Source: Eledone cirrhosa (lineage: Eukaryota). Taken from it: a stretch of DNA of 64,000 nucleotides. Each line of letters starts with the position of its first letter. The first letter of the stretch is position 1. The stretch is taken from NCBI GenBank assembly GCA_964016885.1, contig OZ024740.1:75082001-75146000 (forward strand), written 5' to 3'. The notes under the pieces were generated by a model. It had not been told where the DNA came from. It was given only the letters and a program-made list of their open reading frames with translations, and ran no database searches. The position numbers were made by a program, and so were the translations under genes. This document shows positions 3,560-57,409 of the stretch, piece after piece.

Positions 3560-4435
<876 letters not shown>

Positions 4436-4573
4436 CAATTATTACTATTATATATATATAATAGTAATAATAATAAATTTCAAGACTAAAATCCAAAGAG
4501 GGCTCGATAAGGATAAATATATTTCAAATATATAAGAACCCTAGAGCAAATACTTATTAAAATAATAGATTAA

Positions 4574-4624
4574 AGTTTAAACAAAGAATCGTTACTTTCA
4601 CCCTTAATGGGATCTTCTGAAACT
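4574..4624 (-). ncRNA. Type I hammerhead-like motif in the PLE pLTR (core CAGAAGA)
   Basis: Minus strand reads agttt-CAGAAGA-tccc attaa gggt-GAAA-gtaacgattctttgt-TT-aaact. Stem I is agttt/aaact. The relative at 61455-61500 has stem III agca/tgct. Confidence 0.6.
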
Positions 4625-5507
4625 AAAAATATCAATCTGTGAACGCAGAAGTAAATATTTCGAAAAGCGTTGCAACCGAAGGAAAACAGGAAGACGATAC
4701 TTTGGTTCGTGAAGATGTCCCCTGGTAATGAACGGAAAAAGGGAAGATAATACGTCGTTATGTGGAGCGGTGAGAACAATTACACGCAAAGACAAAACCA
4801 CGTTTATGGTATAAATGAATTCGTAGACTAATATTCTATTTAGGAAACCGAATGATTCTCGGCTTCAGAGTTAATAATAATGTAAATAAATTAGTAGAAC
4901 GAAAATGACAGAGGTTATTAAAATCAATAATAATTAAATATATACATACACGCATCGATATACGTACATACACGTGCATACGCTAAAACACCCGCCTTGC
5001 ATGTACGTACACATAAACACGCGCACGCATACATAAACCCGCGCGACACCTGTACCCTCACCCATACGAACGTATACACCAAATACACATAAAAAGAAAT
5101 ATGTGTGTGCGTGTGTGTCACACATATAATTATATAAACGTATATAAATATACACACATAAATACGTATATAACGCAAGCACACACATACCTACAGGTAA
5201 ATACACATATGTTCATCAAACGTACGTCAACCAAAATACAATGTATACACGTGCAAACACGCATACACGCATACACACACAAAACCAAAATACACAAATA
5301 CACATAACCATATACACATATATCAGTATATATAATATAATATATACACCTATAACAAATACAAACATATATACGTACGAGAGAGTATACGTACCTTCAC
5401 AAAACACATGAGTAAGGTATACTTACCTATATAAATAAGTAATGGTATAAACATAAAATATACTTAGCTACCACATCAAGACGTAAATTATCCGCGTATT
5501 GTTCGTA

Positions 5508-6686
5508 CTATCCGTTAGGGTATAATGTGGGGCTGTAATACAGGAAAGTTTTATGCAATTTGTGTTTACAAGCCGAAAATGCCTCAGATTTTTTGTTTAA
5601 GATGTGGTCATTAGCGTAGAGTATTTCCAGGGCTTCAGCGACGCAAAGATCGCATGGTCTTTTATTTCCGTTATACGATCTAGCTCTAGCTAGGATCTTC
5701 CAGTGTGACCTATATTGGGTGTGGTTGTCTTTTAGACTCCAGATACAAGCTGAAAGTGACGTCATATTCCGTTTTAAAGAGTTAAGAAAAGAATGGGTGT
5801 GCATGTAAAGACGCTGCTTGATTCTATTGGCAGTTAACCCTATGTAGGCCCTACGGGACGTGGGTGTTTCGACCTTACATTTGTAGACAATGTTACTGGA
5901 GAGGCATTTCCCGGATAGAGAACAGTCAACCCCATTCCTACAATTATATTTAGTACTAGCTACAGGATCGCACGTGTTCCTATGGCTAGGTAATTTAGCT
6001 AAAATTGAAGCAGCGATGTTATGTGCAAGGTTAGGAGTCGTAGAGTAAGATATTTTAATGGTATTTCTATTAAAAATGTTATTATATTTATATGCTGAGG
6101 CGAAATGCTTCTTAATAAGGGAGAGAAAGATCTTAGCTAATGGTGTGGTCATCTCAATATTATATGGTGGGTTATACCATATAGTGCGTCGGGATCTATT
6201 TTTCCTTGGTCTATGCTCATACTTAGTATATGCTACCTTATCGACAAATCCACTCGGAGCGAGAGCTTCATTGTAATATGTGGAATGGTCAGTGAAAATA
6301 TGCTCGTTTGTAGATAGACGGGAAAACCTCAAAGAAACGTTACTTACCAGGTTCTTGATTATGCTGGCAGGATGGTTAGAATGCTTACTTATGTAATCAA
6401 GCGTATCGTTCAGCTTTCTATACGGGTAGTGCAAGCCATTCGACAAATTGAGGGTAACGTCGAGGTAATTAACGACCGAGAGGTTTGCCTCAACCTGTAT
6501 GGTTAAAGAAGGCTATGAGTTCTTTTCTGAACCTGTCGCAAGCGCGTGGACAGCACTTTGTCATGGTCAAAAGCCCGCCATCGCGGTACAAACCATCGCC
6601 CATATTGGGGAATTCTTCCTTGATAGAGAAAAGAAGGAAAAGGCCAATAAGATCTGTAACCTCCGCCGAATCGCTGGCGCCCTTTC
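5508..6686 (-). pseudogene. PLE polyprotein remnant: RT C-terminal part, Cys-rich linker and GIY-YIG endonuclease (frameshifted)
   Basis: Upstream frame reads SDSAEVTDLIGLFLL..GLYRDGGL (decayed YxDD). It is followed by VNYLDVTLNL, HSNHPASIIKN, WYNPPY, NCRNGVDCSLSGKCL, NIVYKC..AYIGLT..RLYMH and CDLCVAEALEI. Confidence 0.9.
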
Positions 6687-6945
6687 CTAAATAGAATATT
6701 AGTCTACGACTTCATTTATACCATAAACGTGGTTTTGTCTTTGCGTGTAATTGTTCTCAACGCTCCACATAACGACGTATTATCTTCGCTTTTTTCCGTT
6801 CATTGCCAGGGAAGGTCTTCATGAACCAAAGTATCGTCTTCCTGTTTTCCTTCGGTTGCAACGTTTTTCGAAATATTTACTTCTGCGTTCACAGATTGAT
6901 TTTTTTAGTTTCAGAAGATCCCGTTAAGGGTGAAAGTAGCGTTTC

Positions 6946-7290
6946 TCCCCTTCTCACTTCCTCCCGTTTGGCTAGTAGTGGGTTCTCTTCTTGCTCACAT
7001 CTCACTCACGTCGGACGGTCTGTATCTTGATCGCTCATGAAATCCACCCAGCTTATGCTGACCGGACAACCATGTTGCTTGTTTATTTTCCTATCTTTGG
7101 TTTGCTTTTATCCTTCTATGTTGTTTACTTGTCCCCCTCGCTTTACGCGATTTACTGGTCCCAATAACCTTTTTTAGTTATTGCTCGCACCAACCTGAGG
7201 TATATGATTTTTAATGCGATGAAATATCAATGATGGTTGGCTAATTTTATCATATGTAACCCATGTGCAACCACGCAGTATTCTTCTTTC
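6946..7290 (+). mobile_element. Diverged, internally deleted copy of the 10419-11356 permuted-hammerhead family
   Basis: Shares gctcacat, tcgcaccaacctgaggtatatg..gcgatgaaat..ggttgg and atatgtaacccat.tgcaac..cgcag with 10419-10729. It ends in (TA)n. Confidence 0.7.
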
Positions 7291-7298
7291 TACTCATG

Positions 7299-7407
<109 letters not shown>

Positions 7408-7970
7408 GTGAATGGGCCCATTGCCGTTCCTGCATGGTTTGAAATTTCACGCATGCGCAAACACATACATGTTTATGCACAGGACAAAGATGAGTATAGA
7501 TGCCGCTAGACACCAGATATATATCACGTCTATCAACTCAACAGTAAAGGAGTAGCAAATATCAAGCAGAAGGTTATTTGTCACTGATGTACAGAAAATC
7601 ACAATAAAAGATAATTAAAAATGCCACTTAGAGAATCATTTACATATATAGAATAACTTTTACAAAGTTAGTTGTAGGAGATTGTTTAGAATCTACCGTT
7701 TATCTCGTCATTACTGCAGTTTCATCCAATAAGAATATTGGCCAAGCTATTATATGAAAGGGACAATATCCAAAATATTCGGAATCGTCAGGTGGCTTCT
7801 GTAAAAGTATAATTGAATATCTACCTGTTAGCGGCATTTATACTCGTCTTTGTCATATGTACAGATATTTATTTGTTGGCTTAGTAGGTAATAATTGTGA
7901 TAGATTTGAGGATAGATATGATGCTAGAAAACATATACAATAAAAAACAAAAACATTATCCCTCCCTACC

Positions 7971-8002
<32 letters not shown>

Positions 8003-8008
<6 letters not shown>

Positions 8009-8694
8009 TATACCACTTGATAGCGTGTGGCTTCTCTCATACGCTGTGAACCTGGGCGGACTGGCAGTACCGTTGGTAGGGGTCAAAACTGCCAAAGCCC
8101 ACCGCAACGGCCGATGACCCTGGAGTTCTGTGTCCTTCGTTTGTATCTTTACCTTTAAAAAATAATTTTTAAAAGTTTCCTCTTAAAAAATTATATTTCG
8201 TTGCCTTGTCCTCTCTTAGTTAATTTTCTTAAGTTTATCAACACTATGTGACGAATGTATTATCTCTTCTCCCCCCATTTATTGCAATGGATTACACATT
8301 TTAACACGATATATTACTTTTTTCTTGTTGCTTTTTTCTTCTTTTCTTTTTTTTTCATTCATGACTCTCGTGCTATAAGAGGCACCACACTTTTTCCTTG
8401 ATTTCACATAAAATTCTATGTCTACTTGTTGCTTAATTGCTATAAATCAATGTTTTATCTCTCTTCTCTTACTCCACTGGACAGTGTTTGGCTCGTGTCA
8501 GACGCTGTGGCCCCATACAGACTGGCTGTACCGCTGGTAGGGATCAAATGCCAAAGTACACATCAATCACCGACGACCGTGGAATTCTGTGTCCTTCGTT
8601 TATATTTGCATTTTCAAAAAATAGCTTTTTAAGGTTTCTCCTTAAAAAATTGTTTTTCGTTCGTTGCCTTGTTCTCTCTTTGTTAATTTTTGAA

Positions 8695-8696
<2 letters not shown>
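8003..8696 (+). mobile_element. About 1.5 tandem copies (unit about 460 bp) of a non-coding element carrying a permuted hammerhead-like motif
   Basis: 8003-8235 is similar to 8463-8695. Further copies are at 34453-34937(+) and 59540-59850(-). It is flanked by (TC)n and (TA)n. Confidence 0.8.
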
Positions 8697-8760
<64 letters not shown>

Positions 8761-9759
8761 ATATATTGTGATTGAACATGTGCCATATGTATATACTGTT
8801 TGGAATATCCGAAATCTGGTGTGCTTCAAATGAGTCCTTTGCGATATTCGTTCTGCACCAAGTTACAGACAACCTTTTGTCACTTTAGCTGTCATAAATG
8901 TAATGGATCAATGAGTAACCCATTGGAATTTTAGAAATCTATCACCAATCACGCAATTATTTGCCGCTTGCGTGATAGCATCAATAAATATTTGTTAGTT
9001 TCGTTTTGTTGTAATTTGTTAACATGTATTCATCATTCAATCCTTTGTTTATATATAGTAAATGTTTTTTTATTTATCGCTTAATCGAGGTGGGGGTGGG
9101 GGGTGGAGGAATAGTACCTATGGTTCTTTATTTTTGGGGGTATGCTTAATTGGTGATAGGGAAGGGAAAGGAATGATCAAACCACGGTCATGGTCTAAAT
9201 GCTTGTCACAGAGTGGAGTCTTTTAATGACACCCATGAGCTAGATGACGACAGATTGCATCTACCACTTAAGCAAGCCATAGTGGGATTTGAACCCGAAC
9301 GCAAAGGATTAGAAGTATCGCAAGGCATTCAGTCTCCCATCATACACTGGTTTTTATGTTACCCAACCTAGAATGATAAAAGGCAAAGTTGATCTAAGAT
9401 TGCAAGAAGCCCGAATAAATTGGTCAAACGAATTTGCCTCATTAAAGGTGAAACTTGTAGAATTGTCGAATTTATAAATGATTCAACGTCAAAATGTTTG
9501 TGATGAGTTGTTATTAATAGTGTCTAATTTAGACACAAGTCCAGTGTATATAGATCACAGACATCCACATATATATACACACACACATACACACGTATAT
9601 ATATATACACACATACACACGTATATATATATACACACACACACATTTATATATATACATACACACACGTGTATATATATGGGCCTTCCAGTTTCATTTC
9701 ACATTATATACATGTCTGTGTATATTTTAATTATTTAAAAATTATTTTTAAGTAAACAT

Positions 9760-9816
9760 AATTTTTAGAAAATATTTTGAAGTGAATGTGACCCAACGGG
9801 TCAGGTGTGGTCTAGT
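9760..9816 (+). mobile_element. Helitron-type 3' terminus (GC hairpin plus CTAG|T)
   Basis: tgaccc-aac-gggtca hairpin about 8 nt upstream of CTAGT. A similar end, gtgacccaacgggtcac, lies at 11399-11415. Confidence 0.55.
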
Positions 9817-10010
9817 ATATTACTAAAACTCTGTGATTGATTGCTTGCTTGCTTGCTTGTCTATAATGTAAAACAGCCAAAAGGGCGCATAATGGGAAAG
9901 TACCTTGAAAGGAAGTTGACCCTGAAATGGGAATACAAATAGAATAAAACAAGTTTCGATTAAATCGGAGCACGGGTTCCTGAGATATGGGGTTTTCTGG
10001 GTACCTTAAT

Positions 10011-10063
<53 letters not shown>

Positions 10064-10214
10064 TAGTGGGTGTGAGAGAGTAGATTGAAAGAGAAACATA
10101 GAGAGAGAGAGAGAGAGAGAGAGAGATGGTGGTGTTGTTGAATGAAATTATAACCGGTGACTTCAAAGAAACGAATACACCATTACTGTATCCTGATAAA
10201 TAGGAAGGGGTTCT

Positions 10215-10299
<85 letters not shown>

Positions 10300-10418
10300 T
10301 ATATATATATATTGGCAAAGTAAAAAATAAAAACAACAACAAGGAGTGCAGTAACGAACAGTGTTAGTATGTATATATATGTATACACACGCACCCACAC
10401 CGCCATATATATATATAT

Positions 10419-11350
10419 TTGCTCACATTTCAACCAGGTCTGATGGTCTTTATTCTCTAGTTCACGATTTTATCGAGTTTATATTCATAGAAATCTGGGA
10501 CTTGTCTCTTTCCTCTCACTTTCTGTTGCTTAAACCATTTTGTTTGTTCACCCTAACGTTCTCTTTATTTACGTGTCCCAACGACTTTTTTTAGCCGTTG
10601 TTCGCACCAACCTGAGGTATATGGCCCTTAAAGCGATGAAATGCCTGGGACGGTTGGAGGGTCACTGATGAAGGATTCACTTTTTTATATGTAACCCATT
10701 TGCAACGCCGCAGCTCCATTATTATCATATTTACACATATTTTTTCCTCTGCTGCCACCCGTCTGTTTCTCTCTTTGTATCTTTACCCTTTCTAGCAGTC
10801 TCTCTCTCTGTTAGCCTCTTCCTCAACTTTCACTCACTCATACCCTGTCACTACCTCTCCTCCACTCCTCTTTCTTCCTGCTTGACCTGTCCGATTTCTT
10901 TTCTCGCGCACTCTTGGCCAAGCCGGTATGAATTTTTTTTCTCTCTCTCTCTCGTCTGCGTCTTCACAGAACTTATGTTTACCGAATTCGCAGACCAGAC
11001 CCCTTCTTCTTCTTCCTCCCGTTAGACCTGTGCGAAATTCCTTCCTTGCTCACATTTCAACCAGGTCTGATGGTCTTTATTCTCTAGTTCACGATTTTAT
11101 CGAGTTTATATTCATAGAAATCTGGGACTTATCTCTTTCCTCTCACTTTCTGTTGCTTAAACCATTTTGTTTGTTCACCCTAACGTTCTCTTTATTTACG
11201 TGTCCCAACGACTTTTTTTAGCCGTTGTTCGCACCAACCTGAGGTATATGGCCCTTAAAGCGATGAAATGCCTGGGACGGTTGGAGGGTCACTGATGAAG
11301 GATTCACTTTTTTATATGTAACCCATTTGCAACGCCGCAGCTCCATTATT

Positions 11351-11356
<6 letters not shown>
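10419..11356 (+). mobile_element. Non-coding retro-like element: two near-identical 310-bp direct repeats (period 627 bp) around a CT-rich spacer, each with a permuted hammerhead
   Basis: 10419-10729 matches 11046-11356 almost exactly. (TA)n lies on both sides. Confidence 0.85.
10573..10680 (+). ncRNA. Candidate permuted (non type I/II/III) hammerhead ribozyme; second copy at 11200-11307
   Basis: Reads aggtat-A-tggccct-taaa-gcgat-GAAA-tgcct..ggttgg-agggtca-CTGATGA. Stem III is aggtat/atgcct, stem I is tggccct/agggtca, and the core is canonical. Confidence 0.7.
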
Positions 11357-11387
<31 letters not shown>

Positions 11388-11816
11388 TTTAAGCGAACGT
11401 GACCCAACGGGTCACGGGTGCTCTCGAATTAATAAAATTATAATTACTTTCGGATTTATAATCTTATATTTAGACTGTTTTTGATCTATTAACTTCGCCT
11501 CCAAAGATAGAATTAATAATCCGAAAAGTATAATATAAACTAATAAAATAATTTAAACATCGTGAAGAAAAGAAGTTGAATAGATTTAAAGTTGAGTGAA
11601 AGTAAGCTAGGTTTGCAATCGACGTCAGGATTGGGCGTGTGATGTTAAAAATATTGTAGTGTGATATTTCTTATTGTTTAGCTACACGTTAATAATCCAA
11701 CATTGAGGAGATATATAGTCCAAGCTGTTCCAACCTTGACCATTTTATTATTTCAAAAAGTTAGAGTGTAATTTGAGAGATATTTGGTTACTGTTTTTTA
11801 GTGCGCTTTTTTAGTG

Positions 11817-26670: not shown

Positions 26671-27220
26671 AAGGTATCCAGTCCATAACACATTCTGACA
26701 GCCGGGGGCTTATGAGTATCCCCACTCCCACATGTGCAGTCATTTCTGGCGTCACACCTGAATATTGGAGTTACCATCCTCCACCCAAATCTACAGTACC
26801 AGTGCCACAGAACTTTGTTGTGTAAACGCCGAATATATCCAGCGAGTAGAATTTAGCCTCCTCCACTAGTTCCTACTCCTTACCTGTAAGGGTTGTAATG
26901 TTTCAGGTTCTAATTTTCAAGGTTTGCTCCCTTCCGAACCTTCTTTGGGGTACCGGGAAACGCAATCTTTGTGCGTCCAATCCACCTCTCCCAAGACAGG
27001 TCACAGGCCTATCACCTGTTTTTACGGCATGAAATTAAAACTGCGATATATTTTTCCAACAGACTCCACTACCTAAAGTCTGAACGTGTCCTTTGTTAAC
27101 CCACGCGAAGGACGATGCAGTATGACTATTTCTACTACTTCTCACCATACTGCAGTTTTGGTAGTCTTATCGTACCAGTCACCGATCTGGTACTTTCTCA
27201 AACCAATGAAGACCTCCCTC
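26671..27220 (-). mobile_element. Inverted 5' portion (5' UTR plus endonuclease N-terminus) of the adjacent RTE LINE
   Basis: Minus strand reads NITTLTGKE*ELVEEAKFYSLDIFGV..GTGTVDLGGGW..SGV..AHVGVGILISPRLSECVMDWIP, an APE N-terminus. The protein continues on the plus strand at about 27228 (ERICFLKI). Confidence 0.8.
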
Positions 27221-27224
27221 CCAA

Positions 27225-29673
27225 TGGAGAGAGGATTTGCTTCTTGAAGATAGGTCTCTCTGGGTGGTGCAAGTTTATGCAAGAAATAAGGAGTCCAAAT
27301 ACAGATCCTTTCTTGATGAAGTCACTACAGCGTTAGATGTTGTTAAGACCGAGTCATATATCCCAATGGAAGATTTCAATCCGCATGTTGGCACTGACCA
27401 CATGATATGGAAAGAAGTGATTGGAAGGAAGGGCGATTCCGATCTAAATACGAATGGAGAGGCCTTACTAGTCTTCTGTTCTAGCAATGGACTTTCTATT
27501 ATGAACACTTTCTTCCAGCCCAGATACATCCATAAATAAACATAGTATAAGGGGAATCAGGGACAGAGATTAATAATTGATTTTCTTATTGTCTTTGGTG
27601 TCTTCGATTCTATGCTGGATGTTCGTGTTAAGTGAGGGGGCTGAGCTGTCAACTGATCACCATCTAGTTATATGCAACTTGCGACTACCCAAAGCCAAAG
27701 AAGCTACAAAACTGGCAGGTCTAGGTCAACGTACAGGATGAAGTGAAAAGCGTTTGTAGATAAGAAAGTCAGGACCAAGTATTCAGATACTATTGCATCC
27801 AAATTCAGAGGACTCCCTGCGCAAACTGACAACGTTGAAACGGAGTGGAGATTGTTCAGCTGAGCAGTTTCTGCTTCAGCTGTTAAATGGTGAGAGTGAA
27901 AGAAGCTTAGTGTGGCGCCGCATGGCATGAGGAACCCTTGGTTCAATCAAGAGGTCAAAGAGGCAATACGTGCAAAGAAGGAGCTCTACAATGCTTGGCT
28001 TGCAATTAAGTCCTCCTTCTTGCACTTGCAGTGAAGCAGGCACGACAAATTGCAACATAGACAGTAAATGCGACCAAAGTTAAGCCGTATGGGGATTTGG
28101 TGTTAAGCTTTAGATCAGAAAACATCTGCTGATGTACACGAGGTGCATCAGGGCGCGATGATTAATCTCTCGGAGGCTGAAGTCACAAGAGCAATTAAAA
28201 AGGCAAGGCCTGAGATGTTAAAAACTTTAAATAGAGAAGGTATTCTCTGTATTCTCTGGCTGACTCGTGTGTGCCGGGTGACCTGGAGTTCTGGAAAAAG
28301 ACTTAAGCAATGACAATCGGGAATGATTATCTCAATTTTCAAAAAGGGTGGCAAGAGAGATTGCTCCAATTATAACGGGATCTTCTTGTTAAGCCTCCCC
28401 AGTAAAGTCTAAGTAGCTGGCTAAGAAATGTAGGGAGATTGTCGAGTCGAAGCTAGCTGATGAATAGTACGGTTTTCTCCCCGAACACAGCACAACCGAC
28501 CAAGTATTCACACGGCATGTCTTTGAGAAATCTTAGAAATCCCACCAAGAGATGTATATTTGATTTCTATACCTCAAAAATGCATATGACCGCGTTCCTC
28601 GGGACCTGCTGTGGAAGGTTCTACAAGAGTATGGGGTCGATGGTCAGCTTCTTCCTGCTCTCATGTCTCTATATGAATACCCGAGCGTTTGTGTTCAGAT
28701 AGATGGTGTTAAATAGAAACCATTCAATATGGGTGTCGGACTCCGTCAAGGGTGCGTACTGTTACCCCTCCCGTTCATTATTTTCCCGAACAGGATTGAC
28801 ATGTGCAGCGGAGTTGGAAGTGGTAGATTCAGTCGGCTTGAATTTGCAGACGACATGGTGTTACTTAACTCGACAGAAGTTGATCTCCGACATGCACTTC
28901 ATAGGTTTGATGCTGAGTGCTGCATGGCTGGAATGAAAATCAATGCTGCGAAAACCGAGACACTCGTTCTTTCAAGGAAGCCTGTGCAGTGCACTCTACA
29001 TGAGAATGGAGTTCCACTGAATCTAGTGGAGAAATCGAAGTATCTCGGGGCCGTGTCCACGATTCATGGAAGGTAGGATGCTGAATTAAGTGCAAGAATT
29101 ACAGGAGCTGGTGCAGTAATGCGCCAGCTCAGCGTTCGGTAATCAGACGAAGGTAGATATGTGTAAAAGCCAAACTCGTTATCTTCAGTTCGGTATTCAT
29201 GCCAACTCTTACCTATGGTCATGCATCTTGGGTAATGACCGAAAGAACACGATCGCGAATACAAGCGGCCGAAATGGGGTTCTTCCGAAGAGTCCTTCGA
29301 GTAACTTTACTCGATAGAGTGTGTAGCTCGGAGATGAGAGAGCCGCTCCAGGTAGAGCTGTTACTTCTCCGAATAGATCGCAGCTCCGATACTAAGGGCA
29401 TGTGGTTAGAATCTCAGAAAATAATCGCTGGACAGATTTTACGGGCAAAACCAACTGGCAAGAAATCCAGGGGTAGATCCCGAAAAAGGTGGTTGGATAA
29501 CATCCATTAGCGTGGCTGGTCTCGCTTGGGCGTCTTTTTGGAAACAGTTACTTCTGACTAGACCAGTTGGAAGGAGTGTTTGAGGACTCTGGCCCCACGA
29601 CCTTCTCAGGAATAAAAAAAAGAAGAAAAAGAACAAAAACAATAAAAAGAAGAAGAAAAAGAAGAAGAAGAAG
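27225..29673 (+). mobile_element. RTE-clade LINE (Rex3/Expander-like), decayed APE and RT, with (AAG)n-type tail
   Basis: Motifs VVQVYA..DFNPHVGTD..FCSSNGLSIMNTFFQ, GLRQGCVLLPL, EFADDMVLL, KYLG, RSRIQAAEMGFFRRV and GKKSRGRSRKRWLDNI. The tail aagaagaag is at 29611-29673. Confidence 0.92.
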
Positions 29674-31299: not shown

Positions 31300-32165
31300 G
31301 AGGTGTGTCAGAAAAGTTCCAGGATTGATGTCACAAAAGATTTATTTCAAACCCAAGCTTCACACTAAGAGTTTTCTCCTTCAAAGTAATCCCCCTGGAG
31401 TCTAATGCACTTTTCCATCCTTTTCTGTCACGCTTGTATGCACTCCTGGAAGGATTCTTCCAGGATCCCCCGCAGTTCCATCGTCACGGCCTTTTTTATG
31501 TCGTCCACGTCTTCAAAACGGGTCTCCTCCGGGTCGTACACGAAGATCCATGACTCATCACCGGTGATGGCTGTCCCTAGCAAGTCTGGTTCGGTTTCAA
31601 GACGTTCGAGGATGTCCTGGCACACTTGCATGCGTTGACCCTTCTGGTCATCGTTCAGCAGTTTTGGCAACACCTTCGCGCAGACTTTCCCCATGGGCAA
31701 ATCTTCAGTGAGAATCTTCCAGACGCTATCCCGATTCATGCCCAGCTCATTTGCCATCAGTCGATCAGTCAGCCGACAATCGCTACGCACCATCTGCCTG
31801 ACGCGCTCAACGTTGACCTCAGTCCTGGTTGTTGAGGGTCTTCCGCTCCTCAAAAACACGTGAGCGTGACATCGTCTCATCTCCATACACTTGCTGCAGC
31901 AATGCCAGTGCTTCTGACGGAATTTTCCACAACCGTACCAGAAACTTCAAGTTTGTTCGTTGCTCTGTGCTCATGGCTTGACGACCTGAAACAGAGGACA
32001 TGTATATAAAATTATGAAGAAAAAAGTTTGATCGCTTCAGAGAGCTAAGATTACAGCTACATACTCCAGGGGGATTACTTTGAAGGAGAAAACTCTTAGT
32101 GTGAAGTTTGGGTTTGAAATAAATCTTTTGTGACATCAGTCCTGGAACTTTTCTGACACACCTCG
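31299..32165 (-). mobile_element. Mariner element with internal deletions, about 100-bp TIRs, TA target
   Basis: TIR cgaggtgtgtcagaaaagttccagga...ccctggagt at both ends. Transposase remnants read MSTEQRTNLKFLVRL, RSGRPST, AKVLPKLL (WVPHEL equivalent) and ITGDESWIFVYDPE, then jump directly to RFEDVDDIKK..CIRLQGDYFEG. Confidence 0.93.
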
Positions 32166-32211
32166 TATATATATATATGTACTCACACAGACACACATAC
32201 ACACATACGCG

Positions 32212-32251
<40 letters not shown>

Positions 32252-32291
32252 AATGGAAGTATGTTTAGAAAGCGCAGAGCGAAGTTTGAAA

Positions 32292-32627
32292 ATTGAAATA
32301 GAAATATAATTGTTCTACTTTTGGCACAAGGCCAGCAATTACCAATTACTGGTACTGATAGAAATATAATGCTTTGCTATAACATTTGAATAAATAAAAC
32401 AGTCTTAATAACGGGGCGTATAAACCCATTGAACGAAATAAAGATGGTATCAGCTTACATGGGAGTCGAACCCACTAGTGTGCTCATCGGGCAAACGAGA
32501 AATGTGGGTTCGACTCCCATGTGTGCTGATATCTATCTTGTTCCGTTCAGTGGGTTTATACGCCCCGTTATTAAGACTATGTTATTTAGTTAAATGTTAC
32601 GATGAAGCATTATATTTATATTTCAAT
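32292..32627. mobile_element. Fold-back element with tRNA-like core; left arm interrupted by a 47-bp SINE tail with 13-bp TSD
   Basis: Arms at about 32358-32476 and 32503-32627 are reverse complements, with gtgggttcgactcccat (T-arm/B box) at the inner ends. The TSD atagaaatataat lies at 32298-32310 and 32358-32370. Confidence 0.7.
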
Positions 32628-39891: not shown

Positions 39892-40310
39892 CCACACACA
39901 CACACATCCACCCTCCCTCTCTCCTTGTCACACACGCACACACACATATATATATATGATATGATATACAATTATTACCCACGCGGTTGACATTTCCCAT
40001 ATTATTGACGTGCAGTCTCCACTCTGAGTCATGAGTTTTGTATATTCTTACGTACACATTTTATGTCTCACTGAATGAGTAAGGGGAACGGGTGAGGTTG
40101 CAGGATAACTTTGTAAACTAAAACGATTTCCACTCCCAGTGGTGTTTGATTGTAAGGTGACCGTTTATTTTTAAATTTAATTTAGTTCGATTTATATAAA
40201 CTATATAATATTTATATATATATATATATATATAATAGGAATGAAAAAATGGCGGGCTGTGTTGTTGCAAATGTGATATACAAATTAAAATGAGAATTAG
40301 AAATGGAAGT

Positions 40311-40439
40311 CAGGACTAATCCATCATCAGTGGTCTACTAGCCATCATAGGTATTTCTTCGCATTAAAGACCATTTCGATACCTCAGGCTAGCGCGATAC
40401 CTATGATGGCTAATAGACCACTGATGATGGATAGTCCTG
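40311..40439 (-). ncRNA. Small fold-back containing a permuted hammerhead related to 10573-10680
   Basis: Minus strand reads ctagcc-tg-aggtat-cgaaa-tggtct-ttaa-tgcgaa-GAAA-tacct-atgat-ggctag-t-agacca-CTGATGA. Arms 40311-40354 and 40397-40439 are inverted repeats. Confidence 0.7.
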
Positions 40440-40504
<65 letters not shown>

Positions 40505-50313: not shown

Positions 50314-51557
50314 TGTTTCATAGATAGATAGATATCCTTGCATTACATGTTTCGGCTCTCTGGGATGGGCTAGTTACCAGATCTAGTTACCCCAAAAAAC
50401 ACGCCATATGTCATGATAGCACCCATCTGACTTTATTGAGTGCCCGAAGAAAGAAGAAAGAAAGAAAGGAATGAAATAGACAGATTGATATTGCTTATTA
50501 CATAATATGAAATTTTACACTTTATGTTTACGATAATATTAAATCAAATTTCAATGTTATCGTAATATGAAGACGTTGATGACTAAGAGATATTAACGGA
50601 GGAGTGTACACATTAGTCCATTCTTTTTTTTTTATTTTCAAGGTCTTTAATGACTTGGCAACAGTGATAAACGAATGACGTTATTGAGGTTATTGCGGTT
50701 AATAATCAGGCTGATTTCGTTAAAGGAAACTCTGAATATAAGGTGGGCAGGACAATGTTTTTGATTTTAATAGGGAATAATAGTCGGTGTGTTTTTTTTT
50801 ATCGTTTAACCAGGGCCTGCGGAACTAGTACGAAGGAGGGTGTTATCTTCAAAACGGAGACATGGCTTCAGAGTCGGTGCTGCCATTAGGACAGCTCAGC
50901 AGCCGACTAGTGTGCACAACTCAGGTAAACTTAAAGGGCCACATTTGTATAATTAACTTAAATATATGATAATTCTTTGCGATGAATAAATAAATCACGA
51001 AACATCTTTGTCGCGTAGAAGTGAACATATCTTAAGGGTGGTATAGTTTTTTGAGCTAAAATATGATTTAGCGTGAATATGGACTGTGAAGTAAAAAATG
51101 CAAGTTTAATAATGTTCTTAGTGTGGACAGAGTAAGGTTTGTTAACAACTAGGTTTTTCATCTTGCAATAATAGGGCGCACGTTATAGGGTTAACCTAGG
51201 GTGCTAAATACCAAGGCGTCGCCCCTGTCTCACCTAAATGTTTACAATGGTGTAGTTTTGTTAAAAGAACCTAAGGATCAGGTGTTGTTGTAAAGCAGAT
51301 GACGGATTAATGGTGCTCTTCATGCAAGCTACCGAGGAATTTATACTCAGAGACAAAGAGCCAGAACAAATACTGCAAAGCATTTCGTCCGATGCTTTAA
51401 AAATTCTTCTAATGCACCTCTTTAAACTGGTGCTATATTTTATAAATTCCAAAAGGATGAAAGATGTTGGCCTCGCATGGTGCCGGAACAAATATCCCAA
51501 GACATTTTGTACCAGGTTCTATTCAATATCTTTTAACACGATATACGAGGTTTGGGC

Positions 51558-51655
<98 letters not shown>

Positions 51656-51656
51656 A

Positions 51657-52582
51657 TCGAATGTGCTCAGGCGCTCACTGTCCTCTGGCAAACGGACCCG
51701 GTGATCAGTGGAGACTCCACTTCGACATTCTATAGAGGGTTGGTCCGCAGCAAGTGCGACGACGCGCTCGGAGAAACTCTAGGCGTAGAGGAGGACGAAC
51801 TGGCCAGTCTGTTCGGTAAGACCTTCCGCCCGGGACCAATGGACAACTTCCAAAAGTCCCTGGCCTGGCGGTGCTACCGAGGAGCTCTACCAGTTCGAGA
51901 CAAGCTCTACAGACACGGGCGCCCGGGTAGGGACCCTTCGAAAAAGATCTGTTCGAGATGCGTGCGCGACGAGGAAACCGTCGCACACGCATTTGTACAC
52001 TGCCCGGGCGTTACCGACCTGTGGGGCTATGTAGAACGACTATTGTCGCGGGTGGGACCAATCCAGTTGACCATCGAGTCCATTGTCATGATCAAACCGC
52101 CACCTCCTTCAAAAACGAGGGAGAGGCGGTTTTCCTATGTGTTATGGCTGTGGTGAAAGAGGTTATATGGTGGACGAGGTTAAAAGGGCTGAGGTCAGAC
52201 ACTTTTCTCTCCGGCGCGCAACTGATTCGTTTTTTAAAATATCATTTTGGAAGAAGAATCAGGATGGAGAGAGAGGTACTGTACCCCAGCAAATTTTATA
52301 AAAGGTGGGTGAATGTGGCAAGAATGGCCCGAGTGGTTGAGCCTTCTCTCTATATAAGCCTGTAGGTTGAAGAAAAAGAGGAAGAGAGGAAGGGAGTACT
52401 CACTCTTGGTGCTCCTGGAGAGGAGGGTTGTACATTTTTTCGGGGTGTGTACAACCCCTGTGTAACACCTCCCCACTATTGGGGATTTCAATTGTTATTT
52501 GTTGTGTTATTAATAGTTTTATTTTCATATACCTGTATGTAAACTCCCCTTCTTTTGTGCCCTTGTGGCTAATAAAGAAATG
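51657..52582 (+). mobile_element. 5'-truncated Tx1/L1-clade LINE in (TATC)n
   Basis: Homologous to 56704-57688, with zinc-finger CSRCVRDEETVAHAFVHC and a 3' aataaa. (TCTA)n lies on both sides. Confidence 0.9.
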
Positions 52583-52652: not shown

Positions 52653-54073
52653 ACTGCAAGGAAAACCCTCGAGTAACTGCCAGTAGATATAAGCAAAGCT
52701 AAGGAGCTACTTGCAGATGCCAAAAAATACGTAGTGTACGGGGAAAATGGATCATTTTCGATCCACTCTTCCCCGGAACTAAAAAGCCAGAAACTCCTAA
52801 ACACTGTCATGTTTAGGACAGTCTCAGACAAAACCAAAAAACCAGCTCAACCATCACAGAGTGAGATAGAGCTGGTTTTAAAAGATGTCATGAAAGACAT
52901 CATATTCATCTACGGGAGTCTATCCATTCTCATGAAGGACAGGGACACGGCAGCGAAACTGTCAATAAAACCAATCACATCCACCGCATACACCTTCTAC
53001 CCTACGTACATGAGTAGAAGGACACAAAACATAAAAATTCACACCATCCTTCCGATTATGGACATATAGTGGGTATTGACAGGTTTCCTGGACCTAGACG
53101 ACGACACATTAATATCCATGGGAAAGGCATCGGGTGACGCGTTCAGTGGAACGGGCCTCGAACTTTTAGTTCAAATGAGGCCCGAAAGGATCGCCCAGAT
53201 CCCTTCACTGAACGCGTCATACAGGATGACCAAACTTTTATTAACATTACCGTTGATGGTAGGCGGCCCTCGTGTTACCTCTGTGGAGCCAGAGGTCACC
53301 TGAGGGCTGTCTGTCCTCAACTTAAAAAGAAAACCCCAATCCTGCCTACACCACCAACAACTGCACAACCAACACAATCACCACAACCACCACTACAAAA
53401 CCAACAACCACAGCTCAAACCCAAACAAAACACTGTCCCCCCCCCACACACACTAAAAAAAAACAATTTCCAAAACACCCGGACCGCAAACACAACCCGA
53501 AAATCTACCTCTTCCTTCCAACACGGAAGATGACCCTCGTTCGTCGACAGACGAGGAGGAGCACTTCCACACAATCAAAAGAAAGAAAAGAAAACACACC
53601 TCAGACACACAAATAAAAACAACCAAAATATAACACAGACACCAACACAAAAGAGCACACAATAGCAAACAAAAAACACCACACAAAAACAAAAACATGC
53701 ATACATAAACACAAGAAATAAAAAACTGCTAAACATTGTATACAACAACAATTTAGTGAAAACCCAAGGGCCTAACTTCACCCAGGTAGGGGATTTCCCC
53801 CACCTCAAAATGATTAAGGCCCCAGAGGACACATATAAAACGCTAAAAAACAACTTTAAAGAGGACGTGGGTCCTCCCTGCGTCGGGCCCATTAACCGCG
53901 TCCTCCTAAAAAATTCCCCCACCTCCTCCCCATACACCCACACAACTCCAAACACCCCAACCACACAACACACTGATGCCCCTACACTTCCAAAAACCAC
54001 CACCCCACCCAACAACCCATCCCCCACCCTCATGGAAATTGTGCAGCCCGATATCCGGGACGCAGAGAGGTAA
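52653..54073 (+). pseudogene. Tx1-type ORF1 (gag-like) remnant
   Basis: Zinc knuckle CYLCGARGHLRAVC at about 53270-53315, followed by a P/T/K-rich low-complexity tail. Several stops and frameshifts. Confidence 0.75.
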
Positions 54074-54097
54074 GTGCCTTTTCTCTTCACCACCAAC

Positions 54098-57000
54098 ATG
54101 GCTATGCTGAGAGTACGTTGTCTAAATGCGCGTGGCCTGGGCTCAACTTGGAAGCAAGCAATGCTTCTAAATGACCTCAGGGCACAAGGTATAGATGTTA
54201 TGGTTATTTGCGAGGCCCGGATCAGCAACGTGCGACGGCTGGCCCCCACCTTTGGAATGCACGCATCGCTCTGTCAGCCCAGAGGTGGGAGTGGGGTTGT
54301 CGTTCTGCTGCAAAAACATCTGGGTCTCGCAATACAGACGTTACATTTGGACCCGGAGGGTCGACTAGTGGTTCTGGACCTTGGCAGTGGTAAAGGCGGA
54401 GCGTTTAGGTTGGTAGCCGTCTACGGCCCTTTCGGGTCAATGCGGCCGGACTTCTTCCATCGTCTGGAGACTTCTCTAGGGACGTCCCGCTCCTTGCTAT
54501 TAGTGGGGGACTGGAATGGTATCCTAGATGGACGTTGGGACTACGTAGGGGCCTGTCCCGATAGAGAGGGGTGTAACAGCCTCGAAGGGTTAATCGGCCG
54601 ATTTGACATGGCCAATGGATATCGACTAGATTTTCCGACTGCGCCAACCTGGACTTGGGCAAATCGTAGCGGATCATCTAGGTCGTACCTAGATAGGTTC
54701 TTAGTTAGAAATAAGGATTAGGACTTTTTAAGTTGTCCAGAAATGCTCATGGTTGGCTATTCAGACCACAAGTTAGTGACCTGCATGGTCAACCTTGACA
54801 GAACGCATAGACAGGGACCCGGTTACTGGAAGCTCAACTTGTCCTTACCGGCAAGTAAGGCTTACAAGTACCGGATTAGCACTTTATTTAAGGAGCGGTC
54901 GTCAACAGCAGGTGGTGGTGATCTCTCAAAAGAGAGATTAGAGTAGTCTCTATAGAATTTAGTAAGGAGTTAGCCTCAAATAGAAATAGGAAGGAAAAGG
55001 AGTTGGTAGATAGTGTAGAAGAGGCAATTAGAAGCGGCGACGTGGCCAGAGTGCTAGCGTCGAGAACGGCCCTGAGCCAGTTCTTCGACGCGAAACACGA
55101 AGGCTGCATCGTCCGAAGCAAAATACGTGCTCTGGGAAACAAGGGAACCAAAGCTGTTAGCTGGCCCGCGTGACAGAAGCCAAAAGAGGGAGTAGATCCA
55201 CTATCCGGTCTTTGCGAGGCCAGGATGGACGGGTGATCCTTGAACCTAAGCAGATGTGCGAGGCTTTTCAAAAGCACTTTGCGAGATTGTTCGGAAGTCC
55301 TGCGAGGAGCCGATTTCAGCCGCTGAGATAGAGAACGTGCTGAGCCAATGCGGCAAATGCAAATCCCCGGGTCTCGATGGTCTTCCATACGAACTATATC
55401 TAGCTATGCCGGACTTGTTCCCCGATCTCCTCGAGGCAGTCTACTGCAACTGGCAACAGAACGGGAGAATTCCCTGTGCTGTGACCAAGGGCGTAGTCAC
55501 GCTACTGAGGAAGGACGAGAACAAGGGGGACGATATAAGTAATTTCAGGCCCATAACTCTGCTAAATACAGAGTTACAGATTTTAGCCAAGGTGCTAGCA
55601 AAGAGGTTGGCGCTTGTCGAGGGCAACCTGGTGGGCAACCAGGTCCAACCTGGTGGACAACCTCCACCTCATGCGATACATCATAGAGAGGGTTAGGAAC
55701 GAACCCGGCTTTGGTGGGGCCCTGATCAACTTGGATCAATCTAAGGCGTTCGATAGGGTCGACCATGGTTACCTGGATGCGGTGCTAGCGGCGGCAGGCT
55801 TCGGACCCGTTTTCAGGAGCTGGATCACTGCCAAGCACAGCAGCCGCATCTGCTCTAGAGTCAAGGTGAACGGCTACTTCTCGGAGCCGTTCGAAATCGC
55901 GCGGTCCATCCGACAAGGGGGCCCTCTCTCCCCCCTTCTGTATGTAATGACTCTAGATCCACTGCTGCGGAAGTTGGAGTTGTTGCAGGGCATCCCGTTA
56001 GAACCGGGATTGCGGAAAGCGGTGTCGGCCTACGCCGATGACGTAACAGTAATTGTGTCGACGGCCTAGGAAATCGGGGCGATCGGCACCTTACTGGAAG
56101 AGTACCCAAGGTTTACAGGGGCTAAGCTGAACCGGGACAAGTCGATCGGTTTGCAACTCGGCACGTGGAGGGGAAAATCGATGCCCTCCGATGGCGTCGT
56201 CGGGCGTTGGACAGAGGGCCCGGTGAAGTTGCTCGGGGTCTGGTTCGGACTAGACCTCCAGGTGGAGAAGAACTGGAGTGAGGTAACGAAGCAGGGTGTT
56301 TGCACTGACCCAGAAGTGGGCCGCGTGCAAACTGTCCCTGAAAGGTCGGGCTGAGGTGGCGAACACTTATATAGCGTCCGTCATCTACTACCGCCTGACC
56401 GTCGTGCCTTGCCCAAGGGAAACGCTCGCGAAAATGGAGCGCGCACTCTTCCAATTCCTTTGGAAGAAGCGGGCTCCTATGGTGAGGAGATCCATCTGCT
56501 GTCAACACCCTTCGAAAGGAGGGCTGGGGATGCCGTGGCTGATGATGCGTAAACACACATTAAGGCTATGGCACCTCCAGGTATTCCTCACCGGTCAACC
56601 GGTGTGGGCCTCGTTTGTGAGGCGAGCCTTTCCCAGACTCGTCTCGCTCACCGAGCTGCAATCCTGGGTCAAGCAAAGACCGAGAAAACTGGGCGCCTGG
56701 AACACCGAGTGTACCCAGGCGCTCGCGGCTCTCTGGCAGGCGGACCCAGCTGTCAGTGGAGACTCCACCGCAACATTCTATAGAGGGCTGGTACGCAGAA
56801 GGTGCGACGACGCCCTCGGAGAAGCCCTAGGCATGGAGGAAAACGAATTGGCCAACCTGTTCGGTAGGACATTCAGCCCGGGACCTATGGATAACTTCCA
56901 GAGGTCCCTGGCAGTGTTACCGAGGGGCTCTGCCCGTTCGAGAAAGGCTCTACAGACACGGGCGCCCTGGTAGGGATCCCTCGAAAAAGATCTGTCCCAG

Positions 57001-57409
57001 ATGCGTGTGCGACGAGGAAACTGTTGCACACGCATTGGTACACTGCTCGGGCATTGCCGAGCTGTGGGGCTATGTCGAACGACTGCTGTCACGGGTGGGA
57101 CCAATCCGGTTGACCACCGAGTCTATTGTAACGACCAAGCCGCCTCCCCTCTTCAAAAACGAAGGTGAGGCGGTGTTTCTGTGCGTAATAGCCATGGTGA
57201 AAGAGGTTGTATGGAGGACGCGTCTGAAAGGACTGAGGTCAGACACCTTTCTCTCTGGCCAACAATTGGTCCGTTTCTTCCGATATCATTTCGGAAGAAG
57301 GATCAGGATGGAGAGAGAGGTGCTGCACCCCAGCCGTTTTTATGAAAGATGGGTGAAAGTGGCGAGAATGGTCCGTGTGAATGGGCCTTCACTCTACACC
57401 AGACTGTAG
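54098..57409 (+). pseudogene. Tx1-type ORF2: APE endonuclease, reverse transcriptase and C-terminal zinc finger (disrupted)
   Basis: Motifs CLNARGL, VGDWN, SYLDRF, SDH, WKLN, KSPGLDGLPYE, NFRPITLLN, LDQSKAFDRVDH, RQGGPLSPLLY, AYADDVT, KLLGV, GGLG and CDEETVAHALVHC. Confidence 0.93.

Follow-up and report, generated by a model that had tools for sequence, protein, structure and literature searches.

The 64,000-nucleotide stretch of Eledone cirrhosa DNA analysed here (the window), which is AT-rich, microsatellite-rich animal DNA, contains a family of repeats that, from its sequence, most likely encodes a working permuted hammerhead ribozyme of Naiad origin, predicted to cut the RNA of its own element. 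The evidence as a whole is best explained, we believe with good though not full confidence, by the terminal repeat of a non-autonomous Penelope-type element which is itself a non-circularly permuted hammerhead, and whose spread would combine cutting with copying in trans by an RT. BLAST comparison within the window detected four related places, 7158-7240(+), 10575-10676(+), 11202-11303(+) and 40397-40319(-), hereafter the 7k, 10k, 11k and 40k copies (Table 1). What 40311-40439(-) has in common with the other three is a hammerhead core in the non-circular block order S-G-C, part of which is deleted at 7158-7240. The first-pass annotation had proposed that 40311-40439(-) has the layout of the 10k copy in other helix letters, and each strand that it named was found.

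Table 1. Ribozyme-bearing copies and associated elements, in window coordinates
Feature	Position	Strand	Basis or remark
40k copy: element insertion between (TA)n runs, 5'-truncated, with fold-back	40235..40442	-	
40k 5' fold-back arm, reverse complement of 40311-40354, replacing helices e and P0	40397..40439	-	42/44 columns identical
40k strand a (5' supplied strand of stem II), partner 40363-40359	40393..40397	-	pair table
40k extension helix b, 5' strand 40392-40387, partner 40343-40338, 6 bp	40387..40392	-	pair table
40k block S: stem III strand 40384-40379, five nt 40378-40374, stem I strand 40373-40368	40368..40384	-	
40k block G: strand a' 40363-40359, position 11.1 = 40358, GAAA 40357-40354, stem III strand to 40349	40349..40363	-	
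40k block C: stem I strand 40336-40331, CUGAUGA 40330-40324, next nt 40323	40323..40336	-	
10k copy, intact ribozyme candidate	10575..10676	+	pair table, six-order scan
11k copy, second intact ribozyme candidate, 627 nt downstream of 10k	11202..11303	+	ribozyme identical to 10k
Non-coding element, partial tandem (1.5 x 627 nt) between (TA)n runs	10419..11353	+	
7k copy: ribozyme lacking the 18 nt of block C, P0 hairpin covarying	7158..7240	+	
7k element copy, 5'-truncated, (TA)n at end, directly joined to the inverted terminal repeat of the Penelope-like element	6947..7300	+	65% identical to 11000-11378
Hydra-clade Penelope-like element: RT C-terminus and GIY-YIG frame 5508-6512; terminal repeat 4847-4585, inverted copy 6683-6946	4449..6946	-	

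The 10k copy reads, 5' to 3' on the plus strand, helix e, hairpin P0, a, b, block S, block G, b', block C and e'. Its nested skeleton consists of e (10575-78/10673-76), P0 (10579-85/10594-600), b (10607-12/10652-57) and stem III (10615-20/10641-46, with U16.1 at 10620), over which helix a (10602-05/10633-36, strand a reaching to 10606) and stem I (10622-28/10658-64) form pseudoknots. In the usual hammerhead numbering and under the NUH rule, A17 is 10621, position 11.1 is 10637, and GAAA and CUGAUGA lie at 10638-41 and 10665-71, respectively; the linkers measure 3 nt from the stem I strand to a', 5-6 nt before b' and one nt between CUGAUGA and e'. All core nucleotides adjoin proper stems in the 10k and 11k copies. 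GAAA with the A15.1-U16.1 pair opening a stem III of 5-6 bp is present in all four copies, CUGAnGA directly follows the stem I strand in three of them (10k, 11k and 40k; deleted in 7k), and a single non-G nucleotide 17 (A) separates stems III and I in the 10k, 11k and 7k copies, its place being taken by five nt in 40k. In stem II, 4-5 bp come from the 5' strand a, with no more than one pair contributed by the C block, which indicates that the chain is opened just after A9 and not at a stem loop. The pair at 10.1-11.1 differs from the usual G-C, and three registers (A10672, G10673 or the 5' side) are possible for its partner. Thus, of the permuted hammerhead first proposed, the S-G-C order stands, but the wiring is not that of the plain published SGC, most of stem II being contributed by a separate 5' strand.

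A scan of all six block orders identified S-G-C within one RNA, in each repeat, plus cross-repeat combinations in the tandem; it found no circular-order hammerhead anywhere in the window and no C-G-S (type-I) core within one repeat. Because stems I and a cross nested helices, a nested partition function cannot predict them; unprompted, it gave probabilities of about 0.9 for III, 0.5-0.65 for e, 0.5 for P0 and 0.35 for b. Short linkers join helix b to stem III on both strands, a point against the proposed fold, which they may not accommodate in three dimensions. A predicted hairpin at 10666-10686, between the C box and a downstream U-rich stretch, can sequester CUGAUGA in the monomer fold and, according to this folding model, could turn the ribozyme off in the monomer. 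We regard it as quite unlikely that activity depends on a strand-swapped dimer formed in tandem transcripts, with S and C from one repeat and G from the next (S-C-G plus G-S-C). Such combinations across the repeats of the 10k tandem do form equally good pairings, and hammerheads of Penelope elements and retrozymes often act as dimers (PMC4209133, PMC6765202), but dimeric animal hammerheads have a tiny palindromic stem III, in place of which there are here 5-6 bp plus helix b, with a within-repeat probability of about 0.9; besides, the repeats lie 627 nt apart, and several Naiad consensus sequences with the same S-G-C layout are listed without a pseudo-LTR in PMC8557442.

No Rfam ribozyme was matched: there were no matches at the gathering score in the window, and the 48 weak matches at E<=10 over 4300-11500 included no ribozyme. 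A twister ribozyme has P1, P2, P4, two pseudoknots and a conserved AAGC loop. Comparison with the published consensus by eye did not find these features in the window family. That the copies form some other ribozyme, either a twister-like fold or a type-I hammerhead with the core CUGAGGU at 10612-10618, is scarcely credible: a helix followed by UAA and, in some variants, a stretch like U-ACC-AA do recall twister elements (consensus: PMC10085705), but P1, the GC/GC pseudoknot and P4 cannot form by eye, the AA is not conserved and Rfam is silent, and a type-I core built on CUGAGGU would be without A9, stem I and a valid cleavage nucleotide, in a window that holds no hammerhead of circular order. 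The CUGAGGU motif itself is invariant (10612-10618, 7195-7201 and 40387-40381(-)), overlaps block S and resembles a second, degenerate C box, which may hint at an origin from a duplicated type-I hammerhead.

The 10k and 40k copies differ by 18 substitutions over 75 positions, 13 of which fall in paired positions, and 23 of the 24 pairs are kept, with survival of seven of the eight pairs touched. There are five double changes (two in b, two in stem I and one at 10.1-11.1), or four without the ambiguous 10.1-11.1 pair, together with two one-sided compatible changes and a single break, at the outer end of stem I. Under a null model of random placement with the same transition bias and the core fixed, both covariation figures were reached in 2 of 100,000 placements, a P of about 2e-5 that is optimistic, since the helices outside the core (b, a, P0) were picked from these sequences and 10.1-11.1 may be no real pair. 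Paired positions, whose independent variation the first-pass annotation had named as evidence against its reading, therefore do not vary independently between these copies. The comparison with 7k, weak alone, keeps 21 of 22 pairs with two double changes (P=0.011), and the covariation claimed for the upstream hairpin of that copy (P0) is borne out by two double changes and one repaired mismatch. By the pair table, G-U pairs outnumber A-C mismatches five to one on the ribozyme strand. A pair count from a MAFFT alignment (93% paired, nine double changes) was rejected for stem I because the deleted 7k copy is misaligned there, and the pairwise pair table was used instead.

A descriptor for the S-G-C order that required a stem I of >=6, a stem III of >=5 and pairing of 10.1 with 11.1 matched only the 10k and 11k copies in the window, the 40k copy being added when up to four extra nt were allowed, and its four versions gave 0, 2, 4 and 0 matches in 400 block-wise dinucleotide-shuffled windows, in agreement with the earlier opinion that the permuted structure is unlikely to be a chance arrangement. 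It is very unlikely that the double changes arose by template switching or conversion between short inverted DNA repeats, or by chance, instead of by selection on RNA. The 40k copy does contain a product of such switching, a 44-bp fold-back whose arm includes copies of b, III and I, but the one-sided G-U-compatible changes are strand-specific, the changes are in keeping with three helices that cross one another, fold-backs are absent from 7k and from the Naiad families, and the shuffles gave no more than those 0-4 matches per 400.

This fold-back, an inverted repeat of 44 bp between 40311-40354 and 40397-40439 with one mismatch and one gap (42 of 44 columns agree), has an MFE of -85.9 kcal/mol (z -13), and its arm, in which strands b, III and I are duplicated, would tie up the ribozyme's 3' half. 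On the minus strand, stem III (40384-40379/40354-40349), stem I (40373-40368/40336-40331) and the extension helix are each of 6 bp, as had been annotated, and GAAA (40357-40354) and CUGAUGA (40330-40324) are present. The five nt (40378-40374) reported in place of the single cleavage nucleotide of the other copies were also found, and for this reason 40k is not a functional member of the hammerhead family. Its suspected inactivity can be extended, as a prediction from sequence, to a doubly dead state, in which the 4-nt insertion and the 44-bp fold-back would each contribute to abolishing the active fold. The 40k copy would then be a dead-on-arrival or since-decayed insertion from a diverged subfamily, and its double changes would record selection on the source lineage, not on 40k itself. 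Selection on the permuted structure, as originally claimed, agrees with the 23 of 24 pairs kept and the five double changes, but would have acted on active source lineages and not on the 40k copy. Since the truncation point of 40k lies exactly at strand a, a snap-back of cDNA through helix a/a' could have made the fold-back, an origin that we propose with low confidence.

As to whether the insertion is private to 40k, a question raised with the first description, it is absent from the other three window copies and from the indels listed at >=4% in 917+32 contigs, and is likely to be private; this is not proven, since 40k-like paralogues (72% identical) mostly fall below the likeness cut of the contig set. 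The 44-bp fold-back of 40k, the 11k copy with its period of 627 nt, and helices a, e and P0 had not been annotated before. A 33-bp fold-back at the start and (TA)n at the end, as in 40k, are also seen in 61533-61340(-), a second fragment of the terminal repeat of the Hydra-clade element 4449-6946 that is unrelated to the ribozyme family.

Parts of the 627-nt unit were detected in 15 of 18 listed sequencing runs with 12 organism labels, more than half of its words being present in three runs. No RNA run is among those listed with the unit, a result that carries no information on expression. Alignment of contigs (DNA-type, unphased) to 10530-10735 at >=80% likeness recovered 917 contigs from run X1 (208 of them at >=99%), 32 from X4, and two each from X6 and X7. 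Of the 15 substitutions listed at >=4% in X1 and X4, none falls in GAAA or CUGAUGA, in the cleavage triplet, in helix III or helix b, or in the core of a (four pairs); nine occupy loops, linkers or flanks, and one of these nine, A10632T, extends helix a. T10676C (99.9% of X1 depth) turns the G-U at the end of e into G-C, C10627T (69%) can still pair whether G or A stands opposite, and G10659A and G10661A (26-27%) supply the letters that would pair with the stem I strands of 7k and 40k; six contigs clipped at 10623 have the 7k-type strand. In these unphased contigs the expected partners C10625T (of G10661A) and C10582T (of G10597A), and a repair of the P0 A-C mismatch, are not among the variants at >=4%. 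Loose contig ends at 10642 and a joint 10610-10679 represent family members with short-direct-repeat deletions that remove block C, like 7k.

These counts bear on the idea that the structure is a relic, conserved as RNA but no longer catalytic and kept as a binding or priming signal for the RT, which we consider unlikely. The non-standard 10.1-11.1 pair would fit such a relic, as would the reports that Penelope hammerheads are often slow (PMC4209133) and that in one Penelope element insertion in vitro did not need cleavage (PMC11167929); against it, no variants are listed at catalytic nucleotides in 949 contigs in which the linkers vary, and complete cores are seen by eye in consensus sequences of Naiads from several phyla. 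Outside the family, a pattern scan of metagenomes gave 51 loci, none of the 51 related by BLAST or helix layout, no pattern matches were found in viral contigs and no match in phage records, and none of 19 candidate stretches in viral contigs proved a relative of the Penelope protein. One pattern match in a prokaryote genome was discarded as chance in GC-rich coding DNA.

In the 10k locus the two 322-nt repeats show four differences, and the 627-nt unit is non-coding, without a credible frame, in a tandem with an intact core in each of the two repeats. The unit (10622-11248(+)) is strongly pyrimidine-rich on the ribozyme strand (424/627), and its fold is a little more stable than those of 20 shuffled sequences (z -2.8). 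Each of the three insertions runs into (TA)n 98-139 nt past the predicted cut, with a different amount of 5' sequence kept; such common 3' ends and variable 5' ends indicate that the ribozyme strand is the sense strand. A partial tandem, 5' truncation or inversion, and a (TA)n target are all present, and partial tandems, 5' inversions and (TA)n targets are signatures of Penelope elements (PMC8557442). The 7k copy directly adjoins, as a fusion, an inverted terminal repeat (6683-6946) that belongs to a Hydra-clade Penelope-like element truncated at its 5' end, whose clade was assigned from homologues and their motifs (RWK, DKT, CxCX5C, CxxC and CxH), since Pfam detected no families in the four frames submitted, the Penelope fragment included. 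Near 4870-4840(-) there is a CTGAAG followed by an 8-bp hairpin, which may be a remnant of the type-I hammerhead of the Penelope-like element itself. A Naiad coding frame (N-terminal GIY-YIG plus RT) is absent from the window, where the six-frame motif scan gave only a Hydra-type endonuclease at 5846; none is expected in a non-autonomous derivative. Elsewhere in the window, the fragmented endonuclease-RT frames at 52677-57409(+) and 51461-52365(+) resemble an L1/Tx1-type retrotransposon, and the fragments at 27210-29510(+) and 31428-32376(-) resemble an RTE-type LINE and a mariner-type transposase, respectively.

Naiads are described as having no canonical hammerhead, and in that description 'HHR_core' and 'HHR_half_core' motifs are flagged, with the second half on either side and no fold given (PMC8557442). 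By eye, and not by computed alignment, the 3' ends of Naiad_Obim and Naiad_Ovul contain the helix and linker series of the window family in other helix letters: P0 with a T-rich loop, a of 6 bp, b of 5 bp, the same 3-nt linker, stem III of 5 bp, A17, stem I of 6 bp, GAAA, a 6-nt linker (in Naiad_Obim identical to that of the 7k copy) and CUGAUGA. On this reading the window element and the Naiads have a 3' terminal structure in common. In the Naiad consensus file, inspected by eye at 19 CTGATGA, 36 CGAAAC and 15 of 103 TGAAAC places (the last uninformative, and motifs across line ends missed), non-circular hammerheads were recognized at these motif places in 16 of 54 consensus sequences, eight S-G-C and eight C-S-G; two further places gave ambiguous readings. 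The eight S-G-C Naiads, with stems I and III intact, comprise three from Acropora, two from Octopus and three known by file part only (12, 19 and 25); as the Acropora families are near-identical and the Octopus sequences form a pair, five independent S-G-C forms are represented.

In four of these five forms, C11.1 pairs by eye with a G of the 5' strand a, and three of the four have no G at either of the two nt after A9, which argues that stem II is detached from block C in those Naiads; in the fifth form (part 25) helix a is imperfect. Position 11.1 is C in the Naiads and U or A in the window, so the window family may have drifted. Complete type-CSG hammerheads can be read by eye in apparently all eight nematode Naiad families of File S5 (PMC8557442). 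On balance we lean towards the broader view that hammerheads of non-circular order are in wide use among Naiads, as C-S-G in nematodes and as S-G-C in corals, cephalopods and other hosts, that the S-G-C form has its stem II strand separated from CUGAUGA, giving a wiring of four blocks that the six permutations do not cover, and that the window family is a still-spreading non-coding offshoot.

We postulate that the copies represent the terminal repeat of a non-autonomous Penelope-type retroelement that arose from a Naiad 3' end and whose 627-nt unit resembles that of a retrozyme. Helix a would serve as stem II stacked on III, helix b would hold the tops of I and II, and the intact copies would cut after A17, that is, after A10621 and A11248. 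Cutting in read-through or tandem transcripts would free unit-length RNA, linear or circular, which may be ligated to a circle as is known for type-I retrozymes (PMC7229834). A Penelope-type RT acting in trans would copy this RNA into (TA)n, starting about 100-140 nt past the cut, and in an anole Penelope element copying is reported to begin about 100 nt past the cut (PMC11167929). The mobilising enzyme may be a Hydra-clade RT, given one chimera, or that of a surviving Naiad.

If true, non-circular permutations would occur at high copy number in animal genomes instead of being rare finds among environmental circular RNAs, the Naiad clade reaching tens of thousands of copies (PMC8557442). Non-circular hammerheads, so far known only from environmental sequences of unknown hosts, would be placed in animal genomes and in a named transposon clade. 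It would also account, in a form open to testing, for the apparent absence from Naiads of the ribozyme that other Penelope-like elements have, and challenge the stated assumption that CUGAnGA is inseparable from its stem II strand; the window family and the Naiads supply natural constructs and predicted cut sites. A full-text literature search, with most subscription journals outside its scope, found no report of permuted hammerheads in animal genomes or Naiads. In Eckert et al. 2023 (PMC10085705), all examples of types SGC and CSG come from metatranscriptomes and metagenomes, C-S-G being represented by two sequences; RefSeq 85 was searched there with descriptors that require CGAAA and stem II after CUGAUGA(U)G.

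Compared with type SGC as described there (HRIMA-1 and SGC variants; PMC10085705), the window family is alike in the S-G-C order, the complete core, the pseudoknotted stems, the length of about 100 nt and the 3-nt linker between the stem I and II strands. The additional helix by which the tops of stems I and II are linked in type SGC may have a counterpart in helix b, which occupies that junction and covaries but is formed by a 5' strand and not by a strand after block C. The family differs in being an animal genomic repeat, in taking stem II mostly from a separate 5' strand, and in having P0 and helix e at the opening. Since position 11.1 is U or A, the published SGC descriptor cannot match; judged by eye against it, the family lacks the unbroken block C (CUGAUGA(U)G plus at least two stem II pairs, with CGAAA), and the published SGC descriptors fail on both the window family and the detached Naiad form. 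The window family would thus work like SGC but is outside the published alignment type.

Like the minimal type-I hammerheads that Penelope pseudo-LTRs carry, those of the Hydra clade included, it lies some 100 nt short of the insertion's 3' end (PMC4209133; PMC8557442 File S2), and it shares the U at 11.1 and A at 17 that are common in canonical Hydra-clade hammerheads (PMC8557442 File S2), but the type-I forms have circular order, a short palindromic stem III and dependence on dimers. Similarly to the Naiads of Craig et al. 2021 (PMC8557442), it has (TA)n targets, 5' truncation and inversion and, by eye, the 3'-end helix series of Naiad_Obim and Naiad_Ovul, with the difference that the window element has no coding frame and other helix letters. 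Finally, the family resembles the non-LTR retrozymes of animals (PMC7229834; 10.64898/2026.07.22.740005) in being a non-coding tandem with one ribozyme per repeat that derives from Penelope terminal repeats, and its 627-nt unit is within the 51-972 bp reported for them; their hammerheads, however, are type-I (C-G-S), whereas that of the window family is non-circularly permuted.
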